Positions 4,630 to 63,960 of a stretch of DNA of 64,000 nucleotides are shown piece after piece. A model generated the notes under the pieces. It was not told where the DNA came from. It did not search any database and saw only the letters and a program-made list of their open reading frames with translations. How positions within the stretch are numbered: the stretch's first letter is position 1; every line of letters starts with the position of its first letter. Both the position numbers and the translations under genes were made by a program. This DNA is from a virus. Its lineage: Duplodnaviria; Caudoviricetes. The stretch spans positions 192,001 to 256,000 of IMG/VR virus record IMGVR_UViG_3300037067_018912; one strand, written 5' to 3'.

Positions 4630-5445
4630 ATGAACAACATATCTATAATAATCCCGGTTCACGAATATAATGACAAGGTGTCGGAATATCTCACCAAATC
4701 ATTTGATTCGGTTGTGGCACAAGAAGGAATAGATGAACTTCCCCAAGTGCTGATCGTATTCCCGGCAATGATAGAGACGGAAATGGTTTCATTTTCTGAA
4801 AGCATGTTGAGAAAACATCAGGAAAAGGGAAAATCCGTCTTAATTAAGAATGAGGGTAATTCTGATTACCAATCTCAAGTTAATCTCGCTGTAGAATCTG
4901 TGAATACTCCGTATTTCTCGGTGCTCGAATTCGACGATGAATACGGCAAAGCGTTCGTTAAAAACGCTGAGAAGTATATTGCTTCTTATTCCGATGTTGA
5001 CGTCTTTCTTACTATGATGATTGAGGTGAATGACAGAAATGAAGGCGTAAAGATCACAAATGAAACAGTTTGGGCACAACAATTCGTTGGCGAAAACGGC
5101 GAAATGGGGTATTTAAACCTTAATGCGTTAAAACAATACACCGATTTCAAACTATCGGGTGCTGTGATTAAAAAATCCGAATTCAAGAACCTTGGCGGAT
5201 ACAAATCGAATATTAAACTGACTTTCATGTATGAATTCCTGCTCCGGGCACTGAACAACGCCTGTAAGATTTTCAGCATGCCAAAAATCGGTTATAAACA
5301 TCTCTTCAATAGGGAAGGAAGCCTGTTTGATGTTTATTCCAAAACCATGCCTGTGAATGAAAGGAAGTTTTGGTTTGAAACTGCCACCAAAGAAAGTAAC
5401 TTCCCGACAGATAGGGCAATTGACATGTCGCTGTTGAAAAAATAA
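4630..5445 (+). CDS. Glycosyltransferase family 2
   Basis: ISIIIPVHE start and YFSVLEFDD (DxD-like). Confidence 0.75.
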   Translation: MNNISIIIPVHEYNDKVSEYLTKSFDSVVAQEGIDELPQVLIVFPAMIETEMVSFSESMLRKHQEKGKSVLIKNEGNSDYQSQVNLAVESVNTPYFSVLEFDDEYGKAFVKNAEKYIASYSDVDVFLTMMIEVNDRNEGVKITNETVWAQQFVGENGEMGYLNLNALKQYTDFKLSGAVIKKSEFKNLGGYKSNIKLTFMYEFLLRALNNACKIFSMPKIGYKHLFNREGSLFDVYSKTMPVNERKFWFETATKESNFPTDRAIDMSLLKK

Positions 5446-6277: not shown

Positions 6278-6670
6278 ATGGCCAGACCACAAAGAAAAAA
6301 ATTAAAATTCGATGAAGACAGTGTAAATAAACTGCTTCAGGAGATATATGACGAATCCCACAACATCAAGGCAAAGATTGCAAGATTGTACACCAAGTGG
6401 GAGGTAAAAGTAAAGGAGAACTCCGAGGTTGCCGCAATCGGCGATCAGATTGTGAAACTCATCGCCGCCGAAGCAAAGAATCAAGATCAAAAGATCATGC
6501 TCTTGCGCTATTTGAAAGAAGTTGTTTTTGAAAACAAGACGCCCGAAGGCATGCCAAACTTAAAAAATGCGCAGGGAGAGAATACCGGGGATGTTCCAGA
6601 CAGCAGGAGAAACGAACTATTGAGTTGGGTTGAAGAAACTGTCAACAAGAAAGACAGAGAGAAGAAATAA
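6278..6670 (+). CDS. Hypothetical late protein
   Basis: ORF preceded by GTATTTATA at 6249-6257. Confidence 0.65.
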   Translation: MARPQRKKLKFDEDSVNKLLQEIYDESHNIKAKIARLYTKWEVKVKENSEVAAIGDQIVKLIAAEAKNQDQKIMLLRYLKEVVFENKTPEGMPNLKNAQGENTGDVPDSRRNELLSWVEETVNKKDREKK

Positions 6671-6673
6671 GAT

Positions 6674-7981
6674 ATGGGCATCAAGGACAATAAGAGAGGG
6701 GTTTTTACCACAATAGGCGCATACACCTCATATATCGACAATATGAGGCAGAAGACGCCGCAATCCATTGATGGATACACTTCCATCAATAATAAGAATG
6801 ATATTGTCCCTTTCATGCTCGATGTCCTTAAATCGATTGTGGGTTCTGTCGGATTAAAAGATGTTATAGGTGGATTGTTTACAGAATTCGTCGATGGCAT
6901 CGAACCGGATTTGAAAACAATCGTCAAAAAACAGGTTGTACAATACGATTCGGACGATCCATTACCCAACGAATTTAAGAGCACGGGAAGTGGTATATCC
7001 GTACCCGTGAGAAAGATCGATAGTGATGGGTTGTTAAAAACAAAACCCAATACAGAAGAAGCCGATTTACTTTTTGATAGTAATGCGAACAATCTAAACA
7101 ACGTTTTACGTAACGTTATCGCCAATCAGTCGACGCAACAATATAACGGCATCAATATATCATACAGCCAAACAACCGATGCTTTAACATTCAAAGCGAC
7201 GGAGATTACCTCCGGTAAGAACATTGGGCAGTTTTTCAGTGATTATGTGGATGGCACGACGATTATGAATAAAAAGGAATTCATGACCAACGTGATGAAT
7301 TCTATATATGGCACGGTCACCAAACAACGGAATAAATCTGTGGATGCTGTTTACAATGAACAGATGATTGACAAGACGATCGAAAATCTCATCGATAATG
7401 ACGACGATAGTTTCGAGATTTCCGACAAAGAGAAAGACTCTTTACTTGAAAAATCAAAAGAACTTGTCAACGGAGTTGTTAATTATGATATGGGTTGCGG
7501 GATCATGGCGGCTTCACTTCCAATGAGCGGAATGACGACAGCGATATCGCAAATGTCAGGTTCATCCGATCCATTCGTCGTAGGAAATGTTGTTGAGGCG
7601 ACAGTTGAAGGAAGCACCACCGGGGAGGTTGCAACAGAAAACAAACAAACCGTTAAAGACGGTTTTTTTCAAAGGCTGATCAAATTAATTACTATAATGC
7701 TCGCTAAAGTGACTTCAACATCGCCGGAAGTGAAGATGCTTCTTGCATTGTCAGCGACATTTCAACAACGTAGTGATTCAATTGCCGAGGGTTTGGATTA
7801 TTTGAAAAACAATAAGACCGTTATTAAATGCCTTGTCAAAGAGGCAATGAAAAAAATAAATGAATACATTTTCAACTTTGTGGTTTCAAAGATGATATCG
7901 TTCCTTGCCCCGATTGTGAAAAAATTAATAATGGAAAAAATAAATTATTACATCGGCTTGATAAGAAGCCTAATCTCGTAA
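6674..7981 (+). CDS. Hypothetical virion (baseplate region) protein
   Basis: 435-aa ORF in a late operon upstream of the spike-like gene. Confidence 0.6.
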   Translation: MGIKDNKRGVFTTIGAYTSYIDNMRQKTPQSIDGYTSINNKNDIVPFMLDVLKSIVGSVGLKDVIGGLFTEFVDGIEPDLKTIVKKQVVQYDSDDPLPNEFKSTGSGISVPVRKIDSDGLLKTKPNTEEADLLFDSNANNLNNVLRNVIANQSTQQYNGINISYSQTTDALTFKATEITSGKNIGQFFSDYVDGTTIMNKKEFMTNVMNSIYGTVTKQRNKSVDAVYNEQMIDKTIENLIDNDDDSFEISDKEKDSLLEKSKELVNGVVNYDMGCGIMAASLPMSGMTTAISQMSGSSDPFVVGNVVEATVEGSTTGEVATENKQTVKDGFFQRLIKLITIMLAKVTSTSPEVKMLLALSATFQQRSDSIAEGLDYLKNNKTVIKCLVKEAMKKINEYIFNFVVSKMISFLAPIVKKLIMEKINYYIGLIRSLIS

Positions 7982-11718: not shown

Positions 11719-14424
11719 TTATGCGCCATAATCTGCAAACGAAGCACCCGACGGGGTGATCGTAAATGTTATACCAATGAATTCGACCGCCCTTGTGGGT
11801 TTCAGGAAGATTTCACCATACAATTCATTCCTGTCACGTGTTTCAGGCGTGTTGTTGCTGTCGTCCATCTTGATTTGGAATTCATACAAGCCTCTTTCCC
11901 TTTTGATGTTGTCGAGGATCGGAGTCGCCTGCTGCAGGAATTGGTCGATCGTGGCTTGGTCGTTTTGTTCAAACACGAGCCTGATCGCAATATTGGAGAT
12001 CAAAACCTTGATCCTCAATAACAATCTGCGAACGTTAATCCTGTCGAGGGCACTCTCTTTTACTTGGAGGGTCTTTTGCCCAAAGATGGCTGTGCCTGCT
12101 TCGGCAAAGTCAGCCAACGGGTTGATCCTGCCAGCGTAAAGGGTGTCTCTTGCTTCAAGTGACAGTTTGTATTTCGATTTCCTTGCGTCCGTCACACCAC
12201 GGGTCAAACCTGCAGGTGCGAACCACGGGAACTTCGTATTGTCTGTGAATGCCATAGCCTTCACAACCTCACCTGTTGGTGGGATGTATACATTAACGTT
12301 GTTCTGCGTGTCCCTCATCTGAATCCAAGGGAAGTACGTGCAAGCATAATTGCTGTCGACTTCTGCACTGTCAAGCAGATCAGTGATTTCTTCCGCTGCA
12401 AGAACATCTGATTTCGATTCTCCGACCACGACCGGAACGGTGCTGTCGGGTGAGTCGATGATGTAAAGGCTGTCGGTTCTTTCGTCCTCAAGCATTTCAA
12501 TTGTTTCCTTAACCAATTGGTTGTTGTCACTCCAGTTCACACCAGGTGTTGCAAACAAGTTGATTGTGACTTCCTCTGCATTGGCAAAGGTGTTGATCGC
12601 CGTCTGCCATGCTTGGTAGTCGTTAACCGGACTTCCATTAGGCACGACGCCGTCATATATTTTGTTCAAAGCGTAGAGGTCGCCGTATGAACGTGATGTC
12701 CTGTTAACATCCCATCCATCGAACCCACCTGCCGGAACAAGAGTGAATTTCCTTGATATCATCTCGTAGTACGGATTGTCCGCATCAACAATATCGTCGA
12801 TCGTCCTGAACTTGCCCGCACCAACTTGGAAGGAGTATCCATCGTATGTTCCCGTTGCACCGGAATCCATATGGAATCCTTCGCTTTTCACTTGTGCTCC
12901 GGTACTGATTTGGCCGTTGAAATTGAACATGTTTTGGTTGATACCTGTTCCAATCAATCCGGTTGCATCATAACCATTTTCGGAAATACCGAGATACACT
13001 TTTTTGTACCTTTCGTCGTCGTTGTAAGCCGTCTTATAGAAAATCTTCGGAGCAATACCGCTGAATCCACTGTATTGTGGGAAGAGGTATCCTTCGAAAC
13101 CTGCCGGGAATACTTCTGGTGCAAGTTCGGTGGCCATTTCGACCATAATATACTTGCTTTGAAGGTCGTATTCACCGTCGGATGTACCGATGCGTTGTGC
13201 AATATAACCGTTCGTTCCAAGCGATAAGTTACATCTTGAGAAGGTCTCAAGAACCACCGGGTTGTCGTCAGTATCATTGAAACTACGAACAATAACATTG
13301 AATTCCAACGAAATTGGGTCAATATTGGTTATGCTGATCTTAACTTCTTGGTTTGCAGCATTACCGTCAGAAATGCTGATGAATTTGAACAGTTTGTCCA
13401 CCTTACTACCCTTCAGTTGAGATACAACCCAAGGAGTTTCAGGCGTTTTGAACTGTGTCCGGTAGTTGGTAAATGCATCACTTGTGCAATTGAGTATCGT
13501 AGTGTTGACACCGTAACCGATGCCTTCTGCATCAAGTTTCTTAATAAGATCAGGGAACACTGCCTCAATCCAAATTTTGGTGTTTTTGTCTTTCGGTTCT
13601 GAACCAACGACGCTTGAAATGAAACTCGCAGCATTCGGGTTCAACGAAACTGTGTACAATTCGGTGCTTCCGGTGCTGTACGCCCTCAACACGAATTCAC
13701 CAAACAGGTCACCTGTTTCAAGGATCGTTGTGTTGCCGCTCATAGTGAGTGCGGTTGTATCGAATAAAGTGGTCGAAGGAAGGTTAACGTTGTCTTGGAC
13801 TCTCGCCCTGCTTCTTACAACTGCAAGTACCATACCTTCATATTGTGTGTAGGATGTTCCTGTATACACCGTATCAACTACGCTGACAGTACCACTTGTG
13901 CCTGTCATCGTCATTGCTGTGAACGAATATGAAACACCTTCGAAATCGCTTCCGCTTTTTGTGTATCCGCTGAAATACAATCCCGTGTCTCCGACAAAAC
14001 TCAACGACACACCTAAAAATGCGCCGTCGGTGAAACTTGCCACATAAGGTGCGCCGACAGTCGACACTCCTGTTGTAGCCGGATCAACGCCAGCACTCAA
14101 AGTAAGTGCCCAAGCCGTGCCCGCATCATATCCTGACAGACCCAATACTCTTGTTACATATAACTGATTGGACTCGTCAAGGTAGGCATTGGCGACGTAT
14201 GGTAATTGATATTGCAGATTCCCATTCGAGAACCTTTTGATGCTTTGCGCACCGAATCTTTCCAAGAATTGGGTTTTATCCTCGACGAAGACGGGTTCGA
14301 ACGCCGGACCTTTCAACGTTTCGCCGACAAGACCCAAAGTTGTAATGCCCACGTTACGTGTAACGAACGATAAGTCACGTTCACGAAATTTCACACCGGG
14401 ACTGGTGAATACAAATTCTGCCAT
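11719..14424 (-). CDS. Tail sheath protein (gp18-like)
   Basis: FTSPGVKFRE, GETLKGPAFEP, PWFAPAG, GQKTLQ, LDRINVRRLL, FEQND. Confidence 0.95.
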   Translation of the reverse strand: MAEFVFTSPGVKFRERDLSFVTRNVGITTLGLVGETLKGPAFEPVFVEDKTQFLERFGAQSIKRFSNGNLQYQLPYVANAYLDESNQLYVTRVLGLSGYDAGTAWALTLSAGVDPATTGVSTVGAPYVASFTDGAFLGVSLSFVGDTGLYFSGYTKSGSDFEGVSYSFTAMTMTGTSGTVSVVDTVYTGTSYTQYEGMVLAVVRSRARVQDNVNLPSTTLFDTTALTMSGNTTILETGDLFGEFVLRAYSTGSTELYTVSLNPNAASFISSVVGSEPKDKNTKIWIEAVFPDLIKKLDAEGIGYGVNTTILNCTSDAFTNYRTQFKTPETPWVVSQLKGSKVDKLFKFISISDGNAANQEVKISITNIDPISLEFNVIVRSFNDTDDNPVVLETFSRCNLSLGTNGYIAQRIGTSDGEYDLQSKYIMVEMATELAPEVFPAGFEGYLFPQYSGFSGIAPKIFYKTAYNDDERYKKVYLGISENGYDATGLIGTGINQNMFNFNGQISTGAQVKSEGFHMDSGATGTYDGYSFQVGAGKFRTIDDIVDADNPYYEMISRKFTLVPAGGFDGWDVNRTSRSYGDLYALNKIYDGVVPNGSPVNDYQAWQTAINTFANAEEVTINLFATPGVNWSDNNQLVKETIEMLEDERTDSLYIIDSPDSTVPVVVGESKSDVLAAEEITDLLDSAEVDSNYACTYFPWIQMRDTQNNVNVYIPPTGEVVKAMAFTDNTKFPWFAPAGLTRGVTDARKSKYKLSLEARDTLYAGRINPLADFAEAGTAIFGQKTLQVKESALDRINVRRLLLRIKVLISNIAIRLVFEQNDQATIDQFLQQATPILDNIKRERGLYEFQIKMDDSNNTPETRDRNELYGEIFLKPTRAVEFIGITFTITPSGASFADYGA

Positions 14425-47424: not shown

Positions 47425-50319
47425 TTAATTAGGTCCACCACCAAGTGTAAAGTTTCCACCACCAGTTCCACCACCACCAAACGGATTTTCAAGGTTTAAT
47501 GGTTTGTATTGGAATCCCATTGAACCTCCTTCAATAAAATCGGGCATGCGCAATCTGTCGGTTTCATATCCCTGTTTCATTACAGCATATTTGACTTCCG
47601 GCGACATCCTGCTCATCATATTCTGCCTGGCGGCTTTAAATCTGCCATTGAGAGCATCTTTGAATATGTCGGTAAATACCGCATCAATTGATTGGGGATC
47701 GTTTTGATCAAGATTTTCGAACTTCTGTGCACTCGATTGAAAAGCACTTTTCATTTTTGCCCAAAATTCCTCAGTCACAACACCCTTTTCTTTCATTGAG
47801 GACTCAAACAGATTGAATTGTTTATCGATCAGGCCGTCAAGTTTCTTCAACGTTTCAGATTTTTTCGATTCAGTAAGCATTGGTTTCCTCAAACCGACTC
47901 TTTCTTCAATGCGAGCACGAACATATTTACGAAATTTTTGTTCAGATTCAGACATTTCAGATTTTTCCTCGGTTTTTTTCTTTCCAAAGAACTTTTCCTG
48001 TGCAGGTGTTAATTTTTTCTTGCCGGGTGCTGATTTCTTTTCTTCGGGTTTCTCTTCCGTTTCTTCTTCTTCGGGTTTTTCTGTTTCATTTACCTTTTTC
48101 AATCCTTTGGGTGCAGTTGTGAAAGGCTTACCTTTTCCAACCACGCCGCCTTTTGTTTCTGCGAGGTATGTATTGACACCGTCGGCTATCTGCCTGATCA
48201 ATTTATGCTTCGCTTCATTCATCGAGATGTTGACCGTCTTGTCGGGACTGATGTTAATATCGACGCCCGTTGTCGGAGCACCGTCCGGTTTCGCCGTTAC
48301 AACGCCGAGGGATTGTGCTTCGGGTGCGAATTTTATTCCGTCATCGCTTGCACTGCCCATATCTTCGCCTCCCATCATGTCTTCTGCCTTTTCTTCTGCC
48401 GGGGATTCCCCTGCTTCATGTTCGGGGGATTCGAGTTCCTCGTCATCCTCTTTCAACATGTTGGGTTGAACTTCTACATTGCCGGGATCGACAACACCTT
48501 CCGCCGCCATTTTAACCTGACCTGCAGTAGTCTTCGCAGTCTGACCTTGCTTCCATGCATTTTGTGCTGCAGCATTCATGGGTTTACCACTTTTGCCAAC
48601 AGCAGGTGCTGCCGGAGCACTGATTTGAGCCACTATCTGATTCAACAATTGTTGAACTTCCGGCGGAGTCTGTCCTGCTTTTTTCGTTGTACTGACAAGA
48701 TTGTTGATTTGTTTCGCCAATTCATTGGCAGAATCTTGGAGTTTCTTGTATGCGGGATTTACTTCTCCTTTATAATATTGTTGTTTGACTGCTTGACCTG
48801 CTTGTCCAACTGCCTGTGCTCCTTGTTTAAGCGCACCACCAACTGCCTGTGCTCCTTGTTTGACTGCACCACCGACCGCTTGGCCTGCAGATTTAAGTCC
48901 TCCACCAATTGCACTACCAGCAGCCTTACCCAGGCTTTTCAGACCACCCCAAAGTTCGTCAATTTTCTGTTGTTTGTTTTCATCTCCGCTTTCGTTCATC
49001 GTATTGACAAAAGGTGCTAATTCATTAACATACTCCTCATGTCCGTATTCCTCTTTCAAACATTCCATAATGGAATCGTTCGCATATAATGCAACATTAC
49101 CGAAATCACCATCGTTTTGGCCTTCTCCGTGTGCAGTCGCATATCCTCCAATCAGGCTACCCAATTCTTCATTGCCACATTCGGCGATTGATTCTTTGGT
49201 GTATCCTCTTGATTCAGCATACTGTGCGAAATTACCGCATTCAGCGCACATTCCTTCTTCAACACCTGCTTCATCATCCTGTGGAACAGTTGCACTAACG
49301 TCCTCAATTTCATCATCAGGAACGACTTTGAGTATCAAGTCGGCAATTTCCTTCCTGTCTTCGATTTCGATGTTCCTGATTTTGTTTTTGAATGAAGTGA
49401 TGAATGATTTAAGGTATGACTTGATTTGAGGTGGTTCTAAGTCTGTTTTCCTTATTTTTTCCGTCAACTTGCCAAGGCTTTTTTCAATTTCCTGCATGGT
49501 GAGACTTTTTTCATCTTCCGGTGCAGCAACTGCATCATCTGCCATTGCTTCAGCATCAGCATCTTCACCACCTTCGGGAGCAGGTTCACCTTCACCGCCT
49601 TCAGGAGACATTCCTTCTCCACCTTCCGGGGCAGGTTCACCTTCACCACCTTCCGGGGCAGGCATATCTCCACCTTCAGCAGGAGGTAATCCTTCACCAC
49701 CTTCAGCAGGAGGTAATCCTTCACCACCTTCCGGGGCAGGCATTCCTTCGCCACCTTCAGCAGGAGGTAATCCTTCACCACCTTCCGGGGCAGGCATATC
49801 TCCACCTTCGGGAGCGGATGGTTCTGCTTCCAATCCGGCATCCATTTCTGCTTCGGGAGCGACAGGTCCGGCGGGAACTTCTGCTGCCGCTGCAGCATCA
49901 AGGTCACCCAATTTTTCTTCTGCTTGGTCAATCTCTTCACCAGCCTTATCTTCGTTTAATCTTTTCTTTCCACCATTCGGATTCGGCCTTAACCGGGAAG
50001 ATTCTGAAATTACGTTGAGCAGCATGCTTCTCTGCTTATCGGCTTCCGAAAGTTTCTGAAACTGATATTCAGTGATATTACCCAATCCGCCAATATATGC
50101 AAAATCGGAAACATCAGGGTCTTGTTTCAAACCAGCCTTTTTTATGTAATAATGATGCTGTTCTTTGATGATACCGTAAGCAATACCGTCTGCTGCCCGC
50201 TTGTAATCGATCAGTGTGCCCAGGTTGCGAATTTGAGATTCTTTTACTGAAACCTTGTTCACTTCCGCCAAGTTTCTCAGTCTTGAGTAAAAAGCCTCTT
50301 CTGAACTATGTTTTTTCAT
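47425..50319 (-). CDS. Large acidic low-complexity late (putative internal head) protein
   Basis: 964 aa with PEGGE repeats and many x-x-E sites; late motif at 50359-50367. Confidence 0.7.
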   Translation of the reverse strand: MKKHSSEEAFYSRLRNLAEVNKVSVKESQIRNLGTLIDYKRAADGIAYGIIKEQHHYYIKKAGLKQDPDVSDFAYIGGLGNITEYQFQKLSEADKQRSMLLNVISESSRLRPNPNGGKKRLNEDKAGEEIDQAEEKLGDLDAAAAAEVPAGPVAPEAEMDAGLEAEPSAPEGGDMPAPEGGEGLPPAEGGEGMPAPEGGEGLPPAEGGEGLPPAEGGDMPAPEGGEGEPAPEGGEGMSPEGGEGEPAPEGGEDADAEAMADDAVAAPEDEKSLTMQEIEKSLGKLTEKIRKTDLEPPQIKSYLKSFITSFKNKIRNIEIEDRKEIADLILKVVPDDEIEDVSATVPQDDEAGVEEGMCAECGNFAQYAESRGYTKESIAECGNEELGSLIGGYATAHGEGQNDGDFGNVALYANDSIMECLKEEYGHEEYVNELAPFVNTMNESGDENKQQKIDELWGGLKSLGKAAGSAIGGGLKSAGQAVGGAVKQGAQAVGGALKQGAQAVGQAGQAVKQQYYKGEVNPAYKKLQDSANELAKQINNLVSTTKKAGQTPPEVQQLLNQIVAQISAPAAPAVGKSGKPMNAAAQNAWKQGQTAKTTAGQVKMAAEGVVDPGNVEVQPNMLKEDDEELESPEHEAGESPAEEKAEDMMGGEDMGSASDDGIKFAPEAQSLGVVTAKPDGAPTTGVDINISPDKTVNISMNEAKHKLIRQIADGVNTYLAETKGGVVGKGKPFTTAPKGLKKVNETEKPEEEETEEKPEEKKSAPGKKKLTPAQEKFFGKKKTEEKSEMSESEQKFRKYVRARIEERVGLRKPMLTESKKSETLKKLDGLIDKQFNLFESSMKEKGVVTEEFWAKMKSAFQSSAQKFENLDQNDPQSIDAVFTDIFKDALNGRFKAARQNMMSRMSPEVKYAVMKQGYETDRLRMPDFIEGGSMGFQYKPLNLENPFGGGGTGGGNFTLGGGPN
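49565..49815 (-). repeat. Tandem 24-27-nt coding repeat (P-A-P/A-E-G-G-E-G)
   Basis: Recurrent CCTTCACCACCTTC...GCAGG units, about 9 copies. Confidence 0.85.
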
Positions 50320-50643: not shown

Positions 50644-51452
50644 CTTTCAAACTCGTTGAGACTCAATTCCTGAGTCAAATAGTCATTTTTCAGTTCAACC
50701 ATCCTTTCAAGGTATCCGGTATTTCTCAAAACTTTAAACACGAGGTTTTCCACAGAATATTCACCACCGCTCTCAAGTCCAGTCTGTCTGTATTTCTTTA
50801 TTTTGTCTTTCAACTGCCCATGTTTTTTCAGAAAGTCTTTCTCGTTCTGATTCGTTTCCAAATCTTCGATGGAATTCATCAGGTCAGCCGCTTTCAGTTG
50901 AACATCTGAACTGTCAATATTGATGATCTTGTTTGTCGGTTTTCTGATCCAATCATTCCTTACAAGTGAATAAACACCTGAAGAATGGTGTGGTTCTCCG
51001 GCATCCTCAAGATACATTTCGACATCATGTCCCTTGACTTGTATCGGAAGTTTCTCCGCCCACAACTGTTTCTTCAAACGGAAAAAATCGCCAACAAATT
51101 CCTTATTTAACGAAATCTGATTGAAATCCATAATAACGTGAACGTCCAAGTCGGAATCTTCGTTATAATTATAATTGGCCATACTTCCCGTTAGGACTAT
51201 ATCGTTGTATTTCAAATCCTCCACGCCCGCAAACTCGATGAATCTTTTGGCATTCATTAACAACGCCTTTCTCACTTCCGATTTCAACACATCACCATCC
51301 CAAATAAGCGGTGATAATGTGTCATTCATCTTGAGCGATGTCACGTCAACTTCATCGGGTTCGACAACCTCCTTTAAAACATCAGAGATGTTGTTTCTTT
51401 TCCAAAATCTACCCGACCAAGCACGAGGATTTTTATTTACTTCAACCATCAT
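50640..51452 (-). CDS. Nucleotidyltransferase (Pol beta superfamily)
   Basis: LTGSMANYNY..SDLDVHV (GS-x-DxD) and a third acidic residue in DVEMY. Confidence 0.8.
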   Translation of the reverse strand: MMVEVNKNPRAWSGRFWKRNNISDVLKEVVEPDEVDVTSLKMNDTLSPLIWDGDVLKSEVRKALLMNAKRFIEFAGVEDLKYNDIVLTGSMANYNYNEDSDLDVHVIMDFNQISLNKEFVGDFFRLKKQLWAEKLPIQVKGHDVEMYLEDAGEPHHSSGVYSLVRNDWIRKPTNKIINIDSSDVQLKAADLMNSIEDLETNQNEKDFLKKHGQLKDKIKKYRQTGLESGGEYSVENLVFKVLRNTGYLERMVELKNDYLTQELSLNEFER

Positions 51453-51838
51453 TATTGCATTTTTAATATATCCAATCTGTAGTTACCATCATGACGCAAT
51501 TGACCCCTTTGTCCCAATTTCATGAGATTAATTGTAACTGATTTGCCTGTGACCCGACCATCCTTTAATAAAGGAATGTCAACTTCTGATATGTCTTGTT
51601 GGGTTGAGGTATATTTAAACAATGCCCTATCGTCCAATTCGTACCCTTTTTTCGCCACAAGTTCTCTTAATCCTTTTACTGCATCATCGTAAGAATTAAA
51701 AACATTTGGTTTCGTTAAATCATTGGTTACGTCAGTAAAAACTCCACCCATGAAGGCTTCATTCAACTTAAAATCTGGGTTTAATTTAACCATGTTTTCA
51801 AATAACATGGCCTTGGTATCTTTTTGCTGCTTTTTCAT
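51452..51838 (-). CDS. Leader-bearing putative head protein
   Basis: MKKQQKDTKAMLFENMVKLNPDFKLNE leader. Confidence 0.65.
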   Translation of the reverse strand: MKKQQKDTKAMLFENMVKLNPDFKLNEAFMGGVFTDVTNDLTKPNVFNSYDDAVKGLRELVAKKGYELDDRALFKYTSTQQDISEVDIPLLKDGRVTGKSVTINLMKLGQRGQLRHDGNYRLDILKMQ

Positions 51839-57066: not shown

Positions 57067-57097
57067 TTTGTATTTATAATTCCAAGTATTATATTTG
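57067..57097 (+). promoter_or_regulatory. Bacteroidota primary-sigma promoter for tRNA array 1, with an overlapping late motif
   Basis: TTTG (57067-57070), 19 nt, TATATTTG (57090-57097); GTATTTATA at 57070-57078. Confidence 0.75.
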
Positions 57098-57119
57098 CAA
57101 CAAATTATTTGATATTGTC

Positions 57120-57188
57120 ATGAGAAATTTAGTTCATATCCAGCCCCAACATCAACCACCGCAAGTGGAACGGGGTTACTATGTCTAA
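57120..57188 (+). CDS. Attenuator leader peptide 1 (His/Gln/Pro-rich): MRNLVHIQPQHQPPQVERGYYV
   Basis: 9 of codons 6-15 are His/Gln/Pro; the 3' end carries the antiterminator strand GAACGGGGTT. Confidence 0.85.
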   Translation: MRNLVHIQPQHQPPQVERGYYV

Positions 57189-57220
57189 ATTTTCGTAAAA
57201 AAATTTTTAGTTAAACTAAG

Positions 57221-57251
57221 GAAACCCCGTTCGCAAGAGCGGGGTTTTTTT
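57221..57251 (+). terminator. Attenuator terminator 1
   Basis: AACCCCGTTC-GCAA-GAGCGGGGTT plus T run, ending just before the first tRNA (57256). Confidence 0.9.
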
Positions 57252-57255
57252 GTTT

Positions 57256-57331
57256 CAGGGAGTGGGAAAGTCGGTAATCCGCTTGCTTCGGGAGCAAGAG
57301 ACCGCCAGTTCGAATCTGGCCTTCCTGACCA
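57256..57331 (+). tRNA. tRNA-Pro(CGG)
   Basis: Cloverleaf; loop TT-CGG-GA; encoded CCA. Confidence 0.9.
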
Positions 57332-57334
57332 TAT

Positions 57335-57408
57335 GGTGATTGTAGTTCAATTGGTAGAACGTCAGATTGTGGTTCTGATAGTTGTGGGTTCGAGTCCCAT
57401 CTTTCACC
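57335..57408 (+). tRNA. tRNA-His(GTG)
   Basis: G-1, C73, loop TT-GTG-GT; two T-T mismatches in the acceptor stem. Confidence 0.85.
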
Positions 57409-57412
57409 CAAA

Positions 57413-57520
57413 TATCACGTAAAGACGTGATAAATGAAAATATCGCCTAAAAAGGCGATAAATATAATTTATCGGCTAAAAAGGCTATAAATATAATTTA
57501 TCGGCTAAAATACCGATATT
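57413..57520 (+). repeat. Four tandem ~29-nt hairpin units
   Basis: TATCACGT-AAAG-ACGTGATA, TATCGCCT-AAAA-AGGCGATA and two TATCGGCTAAAA variants. Confidence 0.7.
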
Positions 57521-57535
57521 TTTGTAACAGAGTTC

Positions 57536-57546
57536 AGTTCTTTGAC
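57536..57546 (+). promoter_or_regulatory. boxA-like antitermination site
   Basis: AGTTCTTTGAC, identical to 61552-61562. Confidence 0.6.
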
Positions 57547-57566
57547 GTATAATAAAATTCTTTAAT

Positions 57567-57639
57567 CGGGACGTGGCGCAGTTGGTAGCGCACTTGCATG
57601 GGGTGCAAGGGGTCGGAAGTTCGAGTCTTCTTGTCCCGA
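57567..57639 (+). tRNA. tRNA-Pro(GGG)
   Basis: Cloverleaf; CTTGC-AT-GGG-GT-GCAAG. Confidence 0.9.
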
Positions 57640-57782
57640 CAGGTTTGTGTGAATAGAGATGGTTATCTGAGTGGCATACAGTGGGTTGCAAACTGCTGTG
57701 TGTTGAAAGGATGTACTGGGTTGCCTGCATGCAGTATCAATCTGACTCCCGTGAGGGGGTAGTATCGAAAGCACAACCACAA

Positions 57783-57855
57783 CGGATAGTAGCGAAGTTG
57801 GTATCGCACCTGCTTTGGGAGCAGGGGATCGTGGGTTCGAGTCCCGCCTATCCGA
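57783..57855 (+). tRNA. tRNA-Pro(TGG)
   Basis: Cloverleaf; CCTGC-TT-TGG-GA-GCAGG. Confidence 0.92.
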
Positions 57856-57864
57856 CTTTTATTA

Positions 57865-57937
57865 CGGGTAGTGGGAAAGTTGGTAATCCGCCTGATTTGG
57901 GATCAGGAGACCGCAGATTCGAGTTCTGCTTACCCGA
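57865..57937 (+). tRNA. tRNA-Pro(TGG)
   Basis: Cloverleaf; CCTGA-TT-TGG-GA-TCAGG. Confidence 0.9.
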
Positions 57938-57939
57938 CT

Positions 57940-58015
57940 GTGCTTGAAGTAGGCGTTGGTGTCCTACGCCAGATTGTGGCTCTGGTTTTCGGGGGTTCGA
58001 TTCCCCTCAAGCACC
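57940..58015 (+). tRNA. tRNA-His(GTG), atypical D arm, no encoded G-1
   Basis: CCAGA-TT-GTG-GC-TCTGG; C73. Confidence 0.8.
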
Positions 58016-58030
58016 TAAATTATTTTGAAA

Positions 58031-58321
58031 ATGAATACGAGAATTGTCATATTCCTGCTTAAAAGGATTAATCGCATAATGACCGAGTTAATGAATTATG
58101 CTGATTTACCAAAAGAAAGGTTTGATAAGTTGATATACGATTACAATTACACATATGGTGTTTTTGACAGGGTCGTCGAGAAGCACAGGCGTAATATTGA
58201 ACACATTCCCCTGATCAGGGAGTTGTCCGATTTCGAATATCACTTATACACACAGAGAGAAATGGAATTGATAAACGATGAAACTTATGATCGTCGTCAT
58301 CGTAATATTTTTCATAGATAA
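58031..58321 (+). CDS. Hypothetical protein embedded in tRNA array 1
   Basis: ~96-aa ORF exactly filling the gap between two tRNAs. Confidence 0.5.
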   Translation: MNTRIVIFLLKRINRIMTELMNYADLPKERFDKLIYDYNYTYGVFDRVVEKHRRNIEHIPLIRELSDFEYHLYTQREMELINDETYDRRHRNIFHR

Positions 58322-58323
58322 AT

Positions 58324-58396
58324 TGTCCCGTGGTGTAATTGGCAACACGTCTGACTCTGGATCAGTAGAGTGCAGGTTCGATTCCTGCCGGGACAG
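58324..58396 (+). tRNA. tRNA-Gln(CTG)
   Basis: T1-A72; TCTGA-CT-CTG-GA-TCAGT. Confidence 0.9.
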
Positions 58397-58496
58397 CGAA
58401 GTTCGGTATGAAATAGAAGGTTTTCAGAGATTTGTTCATATCGAGGTTTAGTAATTCCAAGGTCGCCAAAAGAATTAGACCAAAAAATCTCGCCAT

Positions 58497-58582
58497 TGTC
58501 CTCTGGTGGAATTGGATAAACACGTCAGTCTTTGGAACTGATGCCCACATTGGGTTTGCAGGTTCAAATCCTGCGGGGACAG
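58497..58582 (+). tRNA. tRNA-Gln(TTG) with long variable arm
   Basis: TCAGT-CT-TTG-GA-ACTGA; variable arm TGCCCACATTGGGTTT; T1-A72, G73. Confidence 0.8.
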
Positions 58583-58647
58583 CAAAATGCATAAAATTAA
58601 ATATACTTGCATAAAATCATGTATATTTTAATACGCTTGCATAAAAT

Positions 58648-58719
58648 TGCCTTATAGTGTAATGGCCAGCACACAACACTTTGGATGTTGGAGTTCAAGT
58701 TCGAATCTTGGTAAGGCAA
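58648..58719 (+). tRNA. tRNA-Gln(TTG)
   Basis: CAACA-CT-TTG-GA-TGTTG. Confidence 0.88.
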
Positions 58720-59676
58720 CTACCTCCTCCCACCGGAACTGTGACTTGATCCGCCGCTACTTGAACTGCGTGATCCACCACCACTGTAACTCCCGGAACT
58801 CCTGTTTGAAGAACCCGAATATGAAGGACTTGAACTCCTGTATGTCGATCCTGAATTCGATGGTCGTGAATAACTTGAACTGCTTGAACCTCGATAAGAT
58901 GAACCGGAATTCGATGATGGTCGTGAATAACTTGAACTTCTCGTAGTTGCCGGACGTGAATACGATGGCCTTGACTGAGTTCCTGTTGATGACGGTCTTG
59001 AATATATCGGTCTGTCTGTATTTGCCGGACGATTGTAAGTACGTGTTTGAGTACTTGTCGATGGTCGAGTGTAAGTATTACGAGATTGTGTCGTCGGCTT
59101 CACATATGTGTTACGAGTTTGTGTGGCAGTTCTGTTCGATTCGATAGTCCTTCTTGGTCCATAATACTCTGTGCGCCTGTTTGGAGAATGATTCGGATAC
59201 TGATAATAAGTGTGATGTGGCTGCCAATACCAATAATTGTGATTGTACCACGAATAACTGTAGAACGGCCTGTTATACCAACGGTAATGGGGCATGTACC
59301 AATCAAAACTATACCAAGAACCATACGGATAATACCAATCGTAATAGAATGGATCATACCAACCATAATAAGGTGAATGCCAATAAAAATCAAAATAGAA
59401 TGTTGGCCTCATCCTGACATCATAATCATCTTCCTCTTCATAATAGTTATTAACCACGGTAATGTTTTGGACAACCGTGTCCTTTTCCTGTTTTTGCTCA
59501 CCGGGGATGTAATAGACATCATCGTATTCTTCAACCTGTGTGGTTTGATATTTTTTTGCAGAGTCATTCTCCGCTTTTTCCTTGGCTTCACGATACTTCT
59601 CATAATCGGATTTCTCCTGTGCAAGGATTGGTATGGAAAATAGGAGTGCTATTAGTAATAACGCCAGTTTTTTCAT
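58720..59676 (-). CDS. Secreted Bacteroidota-like protein (signal peptide, Tyr/Trp-rich core, Ser/Arg/Gly tail)
   Basis: MKKLALLLIALLFSIPILA-Q signal peptide; YDDVYY motif; SSGGGRR end. Confidence 0.75.
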   Translation of the reverse strand: MKKLALLLIALLFSIPILAQEKSDYEKYREAKEKAENDSAKKYQTTQVEEYDDVYYIPGEQKQEKDTVVQNITVVNNYYEEEDDYDVRMRPTFYFDFYWHSPYYGWYDPFYYDWYYPYGSWYSFDWYMPHYRWYNRPFYSYSWYNHNYWYWQPHHTYYQYPNHSPNRRTEYYGPRRTIESNRTATQTRNTYVKPTTQSRNTYTRPSTSTQTRTYNRPANTDRPIYSRPSSTGTQSRPSYSRPATTRSSSYSRPSSNSGSSYRGSSSSSYSRPSNSGSTYRSSSPSYSGSSNRSSGSYSGGGSRSSSSGGSSHSSGGRR

Positions 59677-61295: not shown

Positions 61296-61334
61296 TTTGT
61301 TTGTATTGTAACATTTTTTACCTTTGCCTCGTAT
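61296..61334 (+). promoter_or_regulatory. Promoter(s) of tRNA array 2
   Basis: TTTG (61296-61299), 19 nt, TACCTTTG (61319-61326); overlapping TGTAAC-N16-TCGTAT. Confidence 0.7.
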
Positions 61335-61372
61335 TTAGACTTGAACGATTATAAACAACAAGAATTTTTAAA

Positions 61373-61465
61373 ATGAAAAAGATGCTCGACATATTAGTAG
61401 TCCTATCAGTGGCCGTCCTGTTGTGGGATGATGCTGCAGAGGAAAAACTACATGAAGTCGGGTAA
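61373..61465 (+). CDS. Attenuator leader peptide 2: MKKMLDILVVLSVAVLLWDDAAEEKLHEVG
   Basis: 18 of codons 5-24 are L/V/A/D/E/W; the 3' end carries the antiterminator strand TGAAGTCGGGT. Confidence 0.85.
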   Translation: MKKMLDILVVLSVAVLLWDDAAEEKLHEVG

Positions 61466-61500
61466 TATTGGATACTTATTACATCTCCTTTCCTAACACG

Positions 61501-61535
61501 AAAAGACCCGGCTTCAAAAAAGACCGGGTTTTTTT
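61501..61535 (+). terminator. Attenuator terminator 2
   Basis: GACCCGG (61505-61511) pairs with CCGGGTT (61524-61530), followed by a T run. Confidence 0.88.
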
Positions 61536-61574: not shown

Positions 61575-61649
61575 GGTGCGTTAGTTCAGATTGGTTAGAA
61601 TATCGGCCTGTCACGCCGAGGGTCATGGGTTCAAGTCCCATACGCACCG
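61575..61649 (+). tRNA. tRNA-Asp(GTC)
   Basis: TCGGC-CT-GTC-AC-GCCGA; G73. Confidence 0.93.
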
Positions 61650-61713
61650 CAAAACGCTTATCGGAAGGTAGGCGAAGCAAGGTCGTTTGAATACGTAATA
61701 GAACGATCTTGAA

Positions 61714-61787
61714 AGTCCTGTAGTTTATACGGGTGTGAATGCCCCTGCGCACGGGGGTGGTTGCTGGTTCAAATCCAGTCAGGACTG
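61714..61787 (+). tRNA. tRNA-like RNA with non-canonical anticodon arm
   Basis: Perfect acceptor AGTCCTG/CAGGACT and normal T arm; anticodon arm CCCCTGCGCACGGGGG lacks a standard 7-nt U33 loop. Confidence 0.55.
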
Positions 61788-61792
61788 CAAAT

Positions 61793-61868
61793 CGTTTCGT
61801 CGGCCTCTTCGGAGAGGAACTGGCCTGTCACGTCAGTAAAATAGAGGGTTCGAATCCCTCCGGGACGG
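61793..61868 (+). tRNA. tRNA-Asp(GTC), atypical D arm
   Basis: CTGGC-CT-GTC-AC-GTCAG; D arm CCTCT-TCGG-AGAGG. Confidence 0.75.
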
Positions 61869-61870
61869 CA

Positions 61871-61992
61871 AAATATCAGAACAATGAAAGTATTGGTTCG
61901 AGTCCAAGGTGGGATAATTCAGATGGCGCAGTAATGCTAAAAGTATTCCTGAACATCCTACCGCAAGGTAAAACGGATGCCTTCTGATATTT
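61871..61992 (+). ncRNA. Candidate structured RNA
   Basis: Closed by an 11-bp AAATATCAGAA/TTCTGATATTT stem; contains a T-arm-like TTGG-TTCGAGT-CCAA and a GCAA-capped hairpin. Confidence 0.5.
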
Positions 61993-61997
61993 TATAT

Positions 61998-62073
61998 GCT
62001 GCGTTCGGCAAGTCCGGTTCAAGCCACCAGACCTTCAATCTGGTCATCATGGGTTCAAATCCCATACGCAGTA
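61998..62073 (+). tRNA. tRNA-Glu(TTC) with C33
   Basis: CCAGA-CC-TTC-AA-TCTGG. Confidence 0.78.
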
Positions 62074-62099
62074 CAATCCTCGAAAATCAGTGGTTATCA

Positions 62100-62268
62100 T
62101 TTGTCCGCTGAAGACAAACAGTAAAGCAAAAAAATCGGGGCATACCCCCGCATCAGAGAGTCACTGAAACTTTACAACCCTTCCAAGAGGGTGTCGTTTG
62201 TTGAAAGATGCATAGTTTCCTCATAATTAAGGAGGTATTGCATTCCAACTTGGTAGTGGACGGACAAT
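62100..62268 (+). ncRNA. Candidate multibranch RNA
   Basis: Stems TTGTCCG/CGGACAA (closing), GACAAAC/GTTTGTT and ATGCA/TGCAT. Confidence 0.4.
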
Positions 62269-62271
62269 CAT

Positions 62272-62343
62272 GCTCGGTTCTTCTAACGGTCAGGAATTCG
62301 GGTTTTCATCCCGGCAATGGGGGTTCGATTCCCCCACCGAGTA
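62272..62343 (+). tRNA. tRNA-Glu(TTC)
   Basis: TCGGG-TT-TTC-AT-CCCGG. Confidence 0.88.
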
Positions 62344-62348
62344 CTAAT

Positions 62349-62412
62349 AATGTTGGTTATATCATACATTAAGTGGTAAAATTAAGGTTAATGTTGGTTA
62401 TATCATACATTA
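62349..62412 (+). repeat. Direct repeat, 2 x 23 nt
   Basis: AATGTTGGTTATATCATACATTA at 62349 and 62390. Confidence 0.85.
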
Positions 62413-62448
62413 TGGAGTGTTTTTGTTAAACATATTTTACATTATCAT

Positions 62449-62521
62449 GTTCGGTTCTTCTAACTGGCCAGGAAAATAGGTTCTCAGCCTAAGAATAAGG
62501 GTTCGACCCCCTTACCGAATA
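62449..62521 (+). tRNA. tRNA-Glu(CTC)
   Basis: TAGG-TT-CTC-AG-CCTA. Confidence 0.85.
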
Positions 62522-62527
62522 CTTGAA

Positions 62528-62605
62528 GTCCTTTTAGTTCAGTTGGTTCAGAATGCCGCTTTCACAGAGCGGAGGTCGTTGGTTCGAATCCAACAAAGGA
62601 CACCA
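62528..62605 (+). tRNA. tRNA-Val(CAC)
   Basis: CCGCT-TT-CAC-AG-AGCGG; encoded CCA. Confidence 0.9.
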
Positions 62606-62695
62606 AATCAAACAAAAGCCAGTAAATGGCATTTAGTGTCTTTTGTTTGAAATTGGCAACGAACGATATTTAGTGCCAAAATTGTGATAATTTTC

Positions 62696-62769
62696 GCTCC
62701 TTTAACTCAGTCCGGGAGAGTGTCTGCCTTACATGCAGAAAGTCGGGGGTTCAAACCCCTCAAGGAGCA
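62696..62769 (+). tRNA. tRNA-Val(TAC)
   Basis: TCTGC-CT-TAC-AT-GCAGA. Confidence 0.92.
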
Positions 62770-62822
62770 CAAAACTATAAATCGGCAGCAAACGGCATTT
62801 AGTGCCGATTTATAGTTTACAA

Positions 62823-62897
62823 GTCCCTTTAGTTCAGTTGGTTCAGAACATCACCTTGACAGGGTGGGGGTCGTTGGTTCGAATCCAACAGGGGACA
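62823..62897 (+). tRNA. tRNA-Val(GAC)
   Basis: TCACC-TT-GAC-AG-GGTGG. Confidence 0.9.
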
Positions 62898-62995
62898 CAT
62901 GGGTTTGCAGACTTGGACAACAAATATGTCGGCAATTGCCAATATATCTTCCAACAAGATATAATACGCTGATATTGGTCTGTGAACCTATACCT

Positions 62996-63079
62996 CTCAT
63001 TGTGGTGGAATTGGTAGACACGTGCGTTCGAGGGGCGCATGCACGAAAGTGTTTGCGGGTTCAACTCCCGCCGATGAGA
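62996..63079 (+). tRNA. tRNA-Leu(GAG) with C33
   Basis: TGCGT-TC-GAG-GG-GCGCA; long variable arm; A73. Confidence 0.8.
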
Positions 63080-63087
63080 CAATAAAT

Positions 63088-63161
63088 GCGGACGTAGCCG
63101 AATTGGCATAGGCGTCAGTCTTAGGAACTGATTTTTGTGGGTTCAAGTCCCACCGTCCGTA
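63088..63161 (+). tRNA. tRNA-Leu(TAG), short variable loop
   Basis: TCAGT-CT-TAG-GA-ACTGA; variable loop TTTTT; 74 nt. Confidence 0.85.
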
Positions 63162-63303
63162 CAAAAGGTGCATGACAGCAATAAGCAGTTTGGACTGCAT
63201 CACCTGTGCCGAGTTATCCTTAAATGTGAAGGAGTAATACCTTCTGAGTCTTTACATGACACTGCTTTATGTGTATTGGTTGGATAACTAAAAAGGCACA
63301 CAT

Positions 63304-63377
63304 GCAGATGTAGCCGAACTGGTATAGGCAATCGTTTCAGGGGCGATAATCTGCGGGTTCGACTCCCGCCATCTGTA
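63304..63377 (+). tRNA. tRNA-Leu(CAG), short variable loop
   Basis: ATCGT-TT-CAG-GG-GCGAT; variable loop AATCT; 74 nt. Confidence 0.85.
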
Positions 63378-63458
63378 CGACCTTATTTTGGGTAACGAAG
63401 CCAATAGTCCCAAACACTCAGGTAGAAAATAATGGTTTCTGCATAAGGACAACTATAT

Positions 63459-63532
63459 GGGGTCGTAGCATAACTGGCTAATGCACCTGCCTTGCAAGCA
63501 GGGGACTGAGGGTTCAAGTCCCTTCGATTCCA
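63459..63532 (+). tRNA. tRNA-Ala(TGC)
   Basis: CCTGC-CT-TGC-AA-GCAGG; G3:U70. Confidence 0.92.
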
Positions 63533-63601
63533 CGCTGTCGGGTTTTTCGCACTTTTAGATTTCCGTGAGGTCAATTGACTGAGAAAGAAAAAGTGCAATT
63601 T

Positions 63602-63676
63602 GGGTCATTAGTTTAGACGGCTAAAACACTTGGTTTGCACCCAGGAGATCACGAGTTCGAGGCTCGTATGTATCCA
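63602..63676 (+). tRNA. tRNA-Ala(TGC), bulged acceptor stem
   Basis: CTTGG-TT-TGC-AC-CCAGG; G3:U70. Confidence 0.75.
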
Positions 63677-63741
63677 CCTGACGGGACTGTTTAGGATTTT
63701 CATAGGACTCCCAATGCAGTGCGCATAGAAAATCCAATTCC

Positions 63742-63815
63742 GGGGTCGTAGTTCAAATGGATAGAGCACCTGCCTGGCAGGCAGGGGGTTGAGGGTTCAA
63801 GTCCCTTCGATTCCA
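63742..63815 (+). tRNA. tRNA-Ala(GGC)
   Basis: CCTGC-CT-GGC-AG-GCAGG. Confidence 0.92.
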
Positions 63816-63881
63816 CTGAGACAGACTGTTAGGATTTCATAGTACCTGCTGCGTGTGGGTAGAAGCGTAGAAATTCAAATT

Positions 63882-63955
63882 GGGGTATTGGTTCAGATGG
63901 CTACAACGTCTGCTCCGCAAGCAGAAGACCGGGGGTTCGAGTCCCCCATACTCCA
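63882..63955 (+). tRNA. tRNA-Ala(CGC) with C33
   Basis: TCTGC-TC-CGC-AA-GCAGA; G3:U70. Confidence 0.85.
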
Positions 63956-63960
63956 CAACA

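Follow-up and report, generated by a model that had tools for sequence, protein, structure and literature searches.

Probable leader-peptide attenuation of phage tRNA genes

Enterobacterial leader-peptide attenuators include the multivalent thrL (Thr/Ile) and the ilvGMEDA leader (Ile/Leu/Val), as well as trpL, hisL, leuL, and pheL. The pheM attenuator governs the pheST operon of E. coli, which encodes Phe-tRNA synthetase, and the T-box riboswitch binds uncharged tRNA directly, with no need for translation. The pheL leader attenuator is covered in PMC3082878, and strong clues to leader-peptide attenuation have been reported in a Bacteroidota species (PMC9723704). As for phages, PMC10264068 presents a 50-year debate over the purpose of their tRNA genes, in which codon compensation is set against defence evasion, together with the hypothesis that phage tRNA arrays counter host defences that deplete tRNAs.

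Here, we analysed a 64,000-nt stretch of phage DNA (the window), in which tRNA genes for Pro, His, and Gln are preceded by a cassette that resembles such attenuators. The reading we favour, with a probability of roughly 0.85, is that this cassette acts as a ribosome-mediated transcription attenuator controlling tRNA genes, in which slow decoding would free an antiterminator and allow the tRNAs to be made. No published description of leader-peptide attenuation controlling tRNA genes was found; a literature search with coverage mostly outside subscription journals returned nothing on attenuation of tRNA genes or on phage tRNA leaders.

Phage, host, and genomic setting

The window spans positions 192001-256000 of a circular virus record of 357,275 bp (complete, ~357 kb), across which 60 tRNA genes and one tmRNA were called. 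The phage encodes a T4-like capsid protein, a portal, and a terminase, and it is T4-like, with a Bacteroidota species as its probable host. The host assignment is based on the TAnnTTTG promoters, on the scarcity of Shine-Dalgarno motifs (7/333 starts), and on a CorA-family magnesium transporter, whose closest named matches (65-69% identity) are mostly Bacteroidales; the CorA gene sits inside the fourth tRNA array (locus L002, 5633-6544). The phage genome yielded no RNA polymerase gene of the beta type. Three sigma-70-family genes are present and, with regard to the sigma factor acting at the cassette promoter, were counted against the attenuator reading. Additionally, the motif GTATTTAT (e.g., window 57070-57077) occurs on the sense strand upstream of 58 of the 333 ORFs, compared with 1 in controls. 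Most Pro/His/Gln leaders have it within their promoter; it is probably a phage promoter element.

The ORFs inspected read normally under translation table 11. One tRNA, at about 12907-12981 of locus L002 (genome position 282907), has the anticodon CTA; it is amber suppressor-like, and ARAGORN labels it Pyl. At least 10 relatives have such a tRNA where their tRNA region ends. Another, with a TCA anticodon, lies on the minus strand at genome position 159671.

Anatomy of the Pro/His/Gln cassette

All parts of the cassette lie on the plus strand. A Bacteroidota sigma-A-type promoter (57067..57097), which consists of TTTG, 19 nt, and TAnnTTTG, has the consensus and position reported for Bacteroidota (PMC9723704) and would start transcription near 57102. 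Its -7 box is present upstream of 17 of the 19 Pro/His/Gln leaders compared among relatives, and a similar promoter motif stands ahead of all four tRNA cassettes in this genome. The leader ORF P0001 (57120..57188), with homologues in 18 relatives, comprises 22 codons and encodes a 22-aa peptide. Codons 6-15 (57135..57164) include nine for His, Gln, or Pro, compared with a genome background of 8.4% for these residues (binomial 2e-9 for the 9/10 run, and 2.5e-5 for 9/21 codons). The first-pass annotation had placed the control codons here, and both its coordinates and its sequence agree with ours.

Segment 2, the antiterminator strand (57168..57177), falls within the coding region at codons 17-20 and, as annotated earlier, is perfectly complementary to segment 3 (57223-57232) over all 10 nt. 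The alternative partner proposed for segment 3 was likewise verified: it pairs with segment 4 (57237-57246) under a GCAA loop to give an intrinsic terminator (57223..57251) that ends in a run of 7 T (57245-57251), with an energy of -17.8 kcal/mol for the 10-bp core and -22.0 kcal/mol for the extended stem. The antiterminator upstream of this hairpin (-18.9 kcal/mol) ranks first in strength across the genome's 121 terminator-like hairpins, and those of the three sister cassettes rank 2, 4, and 23; a leader ORF was not found at the other strong matches inspected. Upstream of these elements, segment 1 (57142..57147) would be able to pair with segment 2 when the leader is untranslated.

The first tRNA begins 4 nt past the end of the T run. 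Nine tRNA genes follow (57256..58720), namely Pro CGG, His GTG, Pro GGG, Pro TGG twice, His GTG, Gln CTG, and Gln TTG twice, for six anticodon types that serve Pro, His, and Gln only. The tRNA calls bear out the earlier statement that the leader holds a cognate codon for every type, with CAU read by His(GUG) through wobble. A boxA-like motif inside the array (57537..57546) is a candidate Nus antitermination signal that may help RNA polymerase cross the untranslated array. Such motifs lie within 400 nt past the terminator in 14 of the 19 Pro/His/Gln cassettes and within 120 nt in 28/68 cassettes of all classes, compared with 0/68 control windows.

Several other features lie within or beside the array. 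The spacer between the second and third tRNA genes (57411-57530) carries three short palindromic hairpins rich in A and T, along with a direct repeat some 29 nt long, and similar sequence is found in the arrays of several relatives. A 142-nt spacer between two tRNA-Pro genes (57641-57782) folds strongly (-45.7 kcal/mol, a value without a shuffle control); it has no Rfam match at gathering score and no match in the relatives fetched, and may be a small RNA or the remains of a tRNA. A 98-aa ORF (58025-58321) lies inside the array on the same strand, and a 318-aa ORF on the minus strand (58720-59676), which opens like a signal peptide, is rich in Tyr/Trp in the middle, and has a Ser/Gly/Arg tail, converges on the array end.

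Folding model of the switch

The folding of the leader was modelled with a stalled ribosome that masked RNA up to 12 nt counted from the first nucleotide of the A-site codon; with a 9- or 15-nt mask, the result moves by one codon. Under the 12-nt mask, the probability of the 2:3 helix is 0.89-0.98 for stalls from His6 to Pro13, 0.68 at Pro14, 0.29 at Gln15, and 0 from Val16 on. This ribosome-masked folding, which had been suggested as a check, frees segment 2 in early stalls, and the switch geometry in the model is one in which a stall leaves segment 2 free and full translation covers it. A reservation expressed earlier, that a ribosome stalled on the last codons might cover segment 2, proved well founded for Gln15, where a stall largely blocks it. 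Because of this, and because the position equivalent to Gln15 is variable among relatives, the modelled working control window is taken as His6 to Pro13/14, and the last Gln codon (57162-57164) is probably too close to be effective as a control codon. The last control codon ends 9-13 nt ahead of the G run in relatives and 7 nt ahead of it here.

For stalls at His11 or later, the finished terminator wins at equilibrium (P(3:4) 0.91-1.0). Since it is more stable than the 2:3 helix in these late stalls, the switch must be kinetic; textbook attenuators likewise rely on a kinetic trap.

The 1:2 helix is a plausible element with modest support from sequence. In the folding model it has a probability of 0.96 without a ribosome and before segment 3 is made, and segment 1 and a small CCAC/GTGG hairpin, both invoked by the first-pass annotation, are present in the minimum-energy fold (z -4.25, with 0/200 shuffles as low). 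Across relatives, the pairing is stronger than expected under own-genome codon usage (mean -9.1 vs -7.4 kcal/mol), and CCC is used at 16 of 48 Pro codons, compared with 4.2 expected from the same kind of null, although a tRNA-Pro(GGG) call in the array is confined to this phage. However, its strength shows no excess over a uniform synonymous codon null, no compensatory change was seen in it among relatives, and the Lys/Tyr leaders have no segment 1. The earlier description of a full switch is somewhat overstated for 1:2.

Conservation and covariation among relatives

Capsid homologues with 73-97% identity led to 30 long contigs, in 22 of which the tRNA regions were read. A positional rule blind to composition yielded 68 cassettes, with by-hand edits limited to four starts shifted to a later ATG and one cassette added; the relatives share ancestry. 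The anatomy, its conservation and covariation, and the matching of codons to tRNAs are all seen in the sequence. Of 20 distinct phage records, 19 (this phage and 18 others) have the cassette ahead of their Pro/His/Gln array. In the exception, G030, leaders 1 and 2 have no in-frame start codon, the terminators are retained, and few tRNAs are present (L130, ~4900-5180 and 6600-6800), so that its cassette system looks decayed.

Both alternative helices covary. In the 19 Pro/His/Gln cassettes, two-sided changes occur at 5 of the 10 pairs of the 2:3 helix, amounting to 9 cells vs 2.1 in shuffles (0/500) and 0-4 in slid registers, and at 7 of the 10 pairs of the 3:4 helix, also above shuffles and slid registers. 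The conserved part of 2:3 is an 8-bp core, and the two outer pairs are mostly this phage's own. In all four cassette classes, leaders pair better with their own terminator arm than with that of a relative; for Pro/His/Gln the energies are -14.0 vs -11.7 kcal/mol, with -5.4 for shuffled sequence (permutation 0/20000). Weak antiterminators in G020 (-5.1) and G029 (-9.1) were counted against the attenuator reading.

The leaders also diverge as coding sequences do. When ten leaders of the same length are compared, codons that differ by a single base do so synonymously in 117 cases and non-synonymously in 51, and the third position varies most. The fraction of codons belonging to the leader's own set is 0.58/0.78/0.55/0.89 in the four classes, compared with a background, calculated from this genome, of 0.08/0.33/0.12/0.44.

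Furthermore, an independent pattern scan, in which 80 loci were read and several contigs overlap those already counted, recovered leader plus terminator 13 times, and all 12 cases with downstream DNA had Pro/His/Gln tRNAs next, whereas none of the 66 chance matches had a tRNA. Some leader variants (L165, L214) stop at a TGA that overlaps the start of segment 2, which is the classical trpL-like arrangement. In G005 (L090 1350-2100) and G026 (L122 7100-7570), HNH-endonuclease-like ORFs, recognised by eye from translation, separate the terminator from the first called tRNA.

Four cassettes and codons that move with tRNA genes

The Pro/His/Gln cassette is one of four alike in the genome. The first-pass annotation, correct in its anatomy of this one, lacked both the promoter and the set of four. 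Sister cassette 2 (61297..61535, + strand) comprises a promoter, a leader, an antiterminator, and a terminator; its leader of 30 codons (61373-61465, +) is composed of Asp/Glu/Val/Leu/Ala/Trp/Met codons and precedes an array for Asp, Glu, Val, Leu, and Ala (61575..63956, +), with Trp next at the window edge. A third cassette stands ahead of a Lys/Tyr array at genome position 264620, and a fourth ahead of a Thr/Cys/Asn/Ile/Ser/Phe/Gly/Arg array at 272437. Each sister leader is spelled in the amino acids of its own array, and the four jointly account for all 20 amino acids if the internal Met of leader 2 is counted. This four-way sorting of tRNAs is kept across relatives.

Where tRNA genes have changed arrays, leader codons have changed with them. 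The Leu tRNAs that read CUN are located in array 4 in G015 and G017, and the Leu codons of the array-2 leaders of these two phages are TTA/TTG only, whereas CTN occurs in all 15 other array-2 leaders; conversely, CTN is found in the array-4 leaders of G013, G015, and G017 and in none of the others. In G017, tRNA-Trp has shifted to array 4 and the Trp codon likewise to cassette 4. Array 4 of G015 is divided in two, one part behind an Ile/Thr/Arg leader and the other behind a Phe/Leu/Asn/Ser/Gly/Cys leader, and each leader matches its own part. Because the Leu move is a single event on the capsid tree (a 94/81 branch sets G013/G015/G017/G021 apart), the independent contrasts number about three, all of which sit in sister cassettes and not in the Pro/His/Gln cassette. 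This co-movement is the best evidence that a leader is selected to sample the codons that its tRNAs read.

Proposed mechanism and alternative explanations

The sequence holds a promoter with a short translatable leader, cognate control codons, a 3:4 terminator, and a mutually exclusive 2:3 helix, the elements of the attenuator class, and the masked-folding model gives the corresponding geometry. The attenuator reading, already advanced in the first-pass annotation, is supported by conservation, by covariation in 2:3 and 3:4, by coding-type substitution in the leader, and by the codon/tRNA co-movement in sister cassettes. Promoter use, transcription-translation coupling in the host, regulation in vivo, and purpose are inferred. 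In the proposed scheme, transcription by host RNA polymerase would begin at the Bacteroidota-type promoter, and the leader would be translated by a host ribosome. When the Pro/His/Gln codons are read fast, the ribosome would cover segment 2, the 3:4 hairpin would form, and transcription would stop 4 nt before the first tRNA. When charged tRNA is scarce, the ribosome would wait at any codon from His6 to Pro13/14, segment 2 would pair with the emerging segment 3, the terminator would be blocked, and the nine tRNAs would be transcribed; the new tRNAs would then relieve the stall, closing a negative feedback loop. Without a ribosome, 1:2 would probably form first and favour termination. The four cassettes would split all 20 amino acids among themselves in this manner. 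The sensor cannot distinguish amino-acid starvation from tRNA loss; as its output is tRNA, shortage of tRNA would be the more useful trigger.

A first alternative keeps the same switch and supposes that it senses general translation speed or ribosome loading, as altered by uncoupling, antibiotics, or ribosome toxins, with codon identity secondary. In the model any stall before codon 14, whatever the codon, does free segment 2, and this leader has a Pro-Pro pair; Pro codons are intrinsically slow, and a Pro-Pro pair may depend on EF-P. However, the Pro-Pro pair is missing in relatives, and a general sensor needs neither four leaders that each match their own array nor codons that follow tRNA genes down to the isoacceptor level. 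We consider this explanation unlikely.

Still less probable is a constitutive terminator that either damps the production of tRNAs or yields to antitermination, whether by boxA/Nus or by the phage. The leader ORF would then code for a small peptide with a function of its own, and the 2:3 complementarity would have been left behind when a terminator arm was duplicated. By its construction, segment 2 is similar to segment 4, and both the equilibrium dominance of 3:4 and the boxA-like motifs after many terminators accord with this explanation. Those motifs, however, lie downstream of the terminator, out of reach of their usual mode of action, and segment 2 covaries with segment 3 despite its coding location. 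The supposed peptide varies freely in its C-terminal part, is cut short before segment 2 in two relatives, and has a content that tracks rearrangements of tRNA genes. Chance or compositional artefact, which might be invoked because A/C-rich Pro/Gln/His codons and complementary G and C runs arise readily in short windows, is refuted by own-arm pairing, 2:3 covariation, the pattern scan, and codon/tRNA co-movement, and faces in addition the top rank among 121 hairpins, retention in 18 relatives with synonymous divergence, and repetition in four cassettes with differing sequences.

Beyond the attenuator reading itself, the four cassettes may form a complete monitor of the 20-amino-acid tRNA pool that serves mainly as an inducible counter-defence, whereby the loss of a tRNA class to a host anticodon nuclease would stall ribosomes on the matching leader and only that replacement block would be made. 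We regard this extension as tentative and somewhat doubtful.

Similar cassettes in other genomes

The cultured Caulobacter phage phiCbK carries an analogous cassette, in which a 32-codon leader (near 51341-51502 of NC_019405) with a -29.5 kcal/mol antiterminator precedes a predicted terminator and then Phe/Val/Ile/Gln tRNAs, with a counterpart in CcrColossus; on inspection, it has no apparent sequence likeness to the Pro/His/Gln cassette. Elsewhere in phiCbK (49540-49769; L263 2541-2790), a 45-codon ORF annotated as hypothetical and rich in Ala/Ser/Thr/Pro/Leu/Lys is followed by a terminator and then Pro/Lys/Leu/Ala/Ser tRNAs; its best antiterminator falls early (codon 12), and its geometry is less clear. 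Among cultured phages, no DNA match to the leader was found, and the capsid protein has ~31-33% identity over its length. The upstream 105-aa ORF as a query returned no relatives, and the terminator-plus-tRNA pattern found no match among viral contigs. In bacterial genomes, one strict pattern gave four matches. One is a 362,763-bp contig (L257) that matches phage G004 in both length and leader, filed in a Paceibacterota bin, probably through a binning error; another, 5.9 kb long, carries the same cassette and arrays and is probably phage DNA in a bin. The other two lack tRNAs and were set aside as chance matches, and this pattern gave no sign of a chromosomal copy of the cassette.

Significance and comparison with known systems

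If tRNA blocks are indeed made on demand, phage tRNAs would answer a shortage met during infection, and the question would become a measurable one, namely which stress (amino-acid starvation, tRNA nuclease, or phage codon load) opens which cassette. Classical attenuation would be extended to a direct feedback loop on tRNA genes, and the cassette would offer a compact in vivo reporter for charged-tRNA supply. Being cultured, phiCbK permits testing of an analogous cassette.

The hypothesis in PMC10264068 has in common with this phage a large tRNA set able to replace depleted host tRNAs; it concerns anticodon-loop changes and, in the part accessible, proposes no sensor or inducible control. As in T-box riboswitches, tRNA charging would be read through a codon and a terminator/antiterminator pair switched, but the element here is a conserved translatable ORF, and no T-box match (stem I specifier loop, antiterminator bulge) was obtained with the Rfam model at gathering score or at E up to 10. 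The likeness to pheM lies in leader-peptide attenuation that feeds back on charged tRNA supply through a part of the translation apparatus, although pheM is a chromosomal element that regulates a synthetase in response to a single amino acid.

The Rfam leader families (Thr_leader, Phe_leader, Leu_leader, His_leader, Trp_leader) gave no match at gathering score, the Thr, Phe, and Leu models scoring 15-19 bits vs cut-offs of 50-55, and tRNA genes lie downstream in place of the biosynthetic enzymes or synthetases that define amino acid operon leaders. The organisation is nevertheless that of thrL and the ilv leader, with a promoter, a short ORF with control codons, and exclusive 2:3 and 3:4 helices, such that a stall at any of several codon types would lead to read-through. 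Unlike those leaders, the cassettes described here are phage-borne, have tRNAs rather than biosynthetic enzymes as the regulated genes, place segment 2 within the coding region, and partition all 20 amino acids among four copies.
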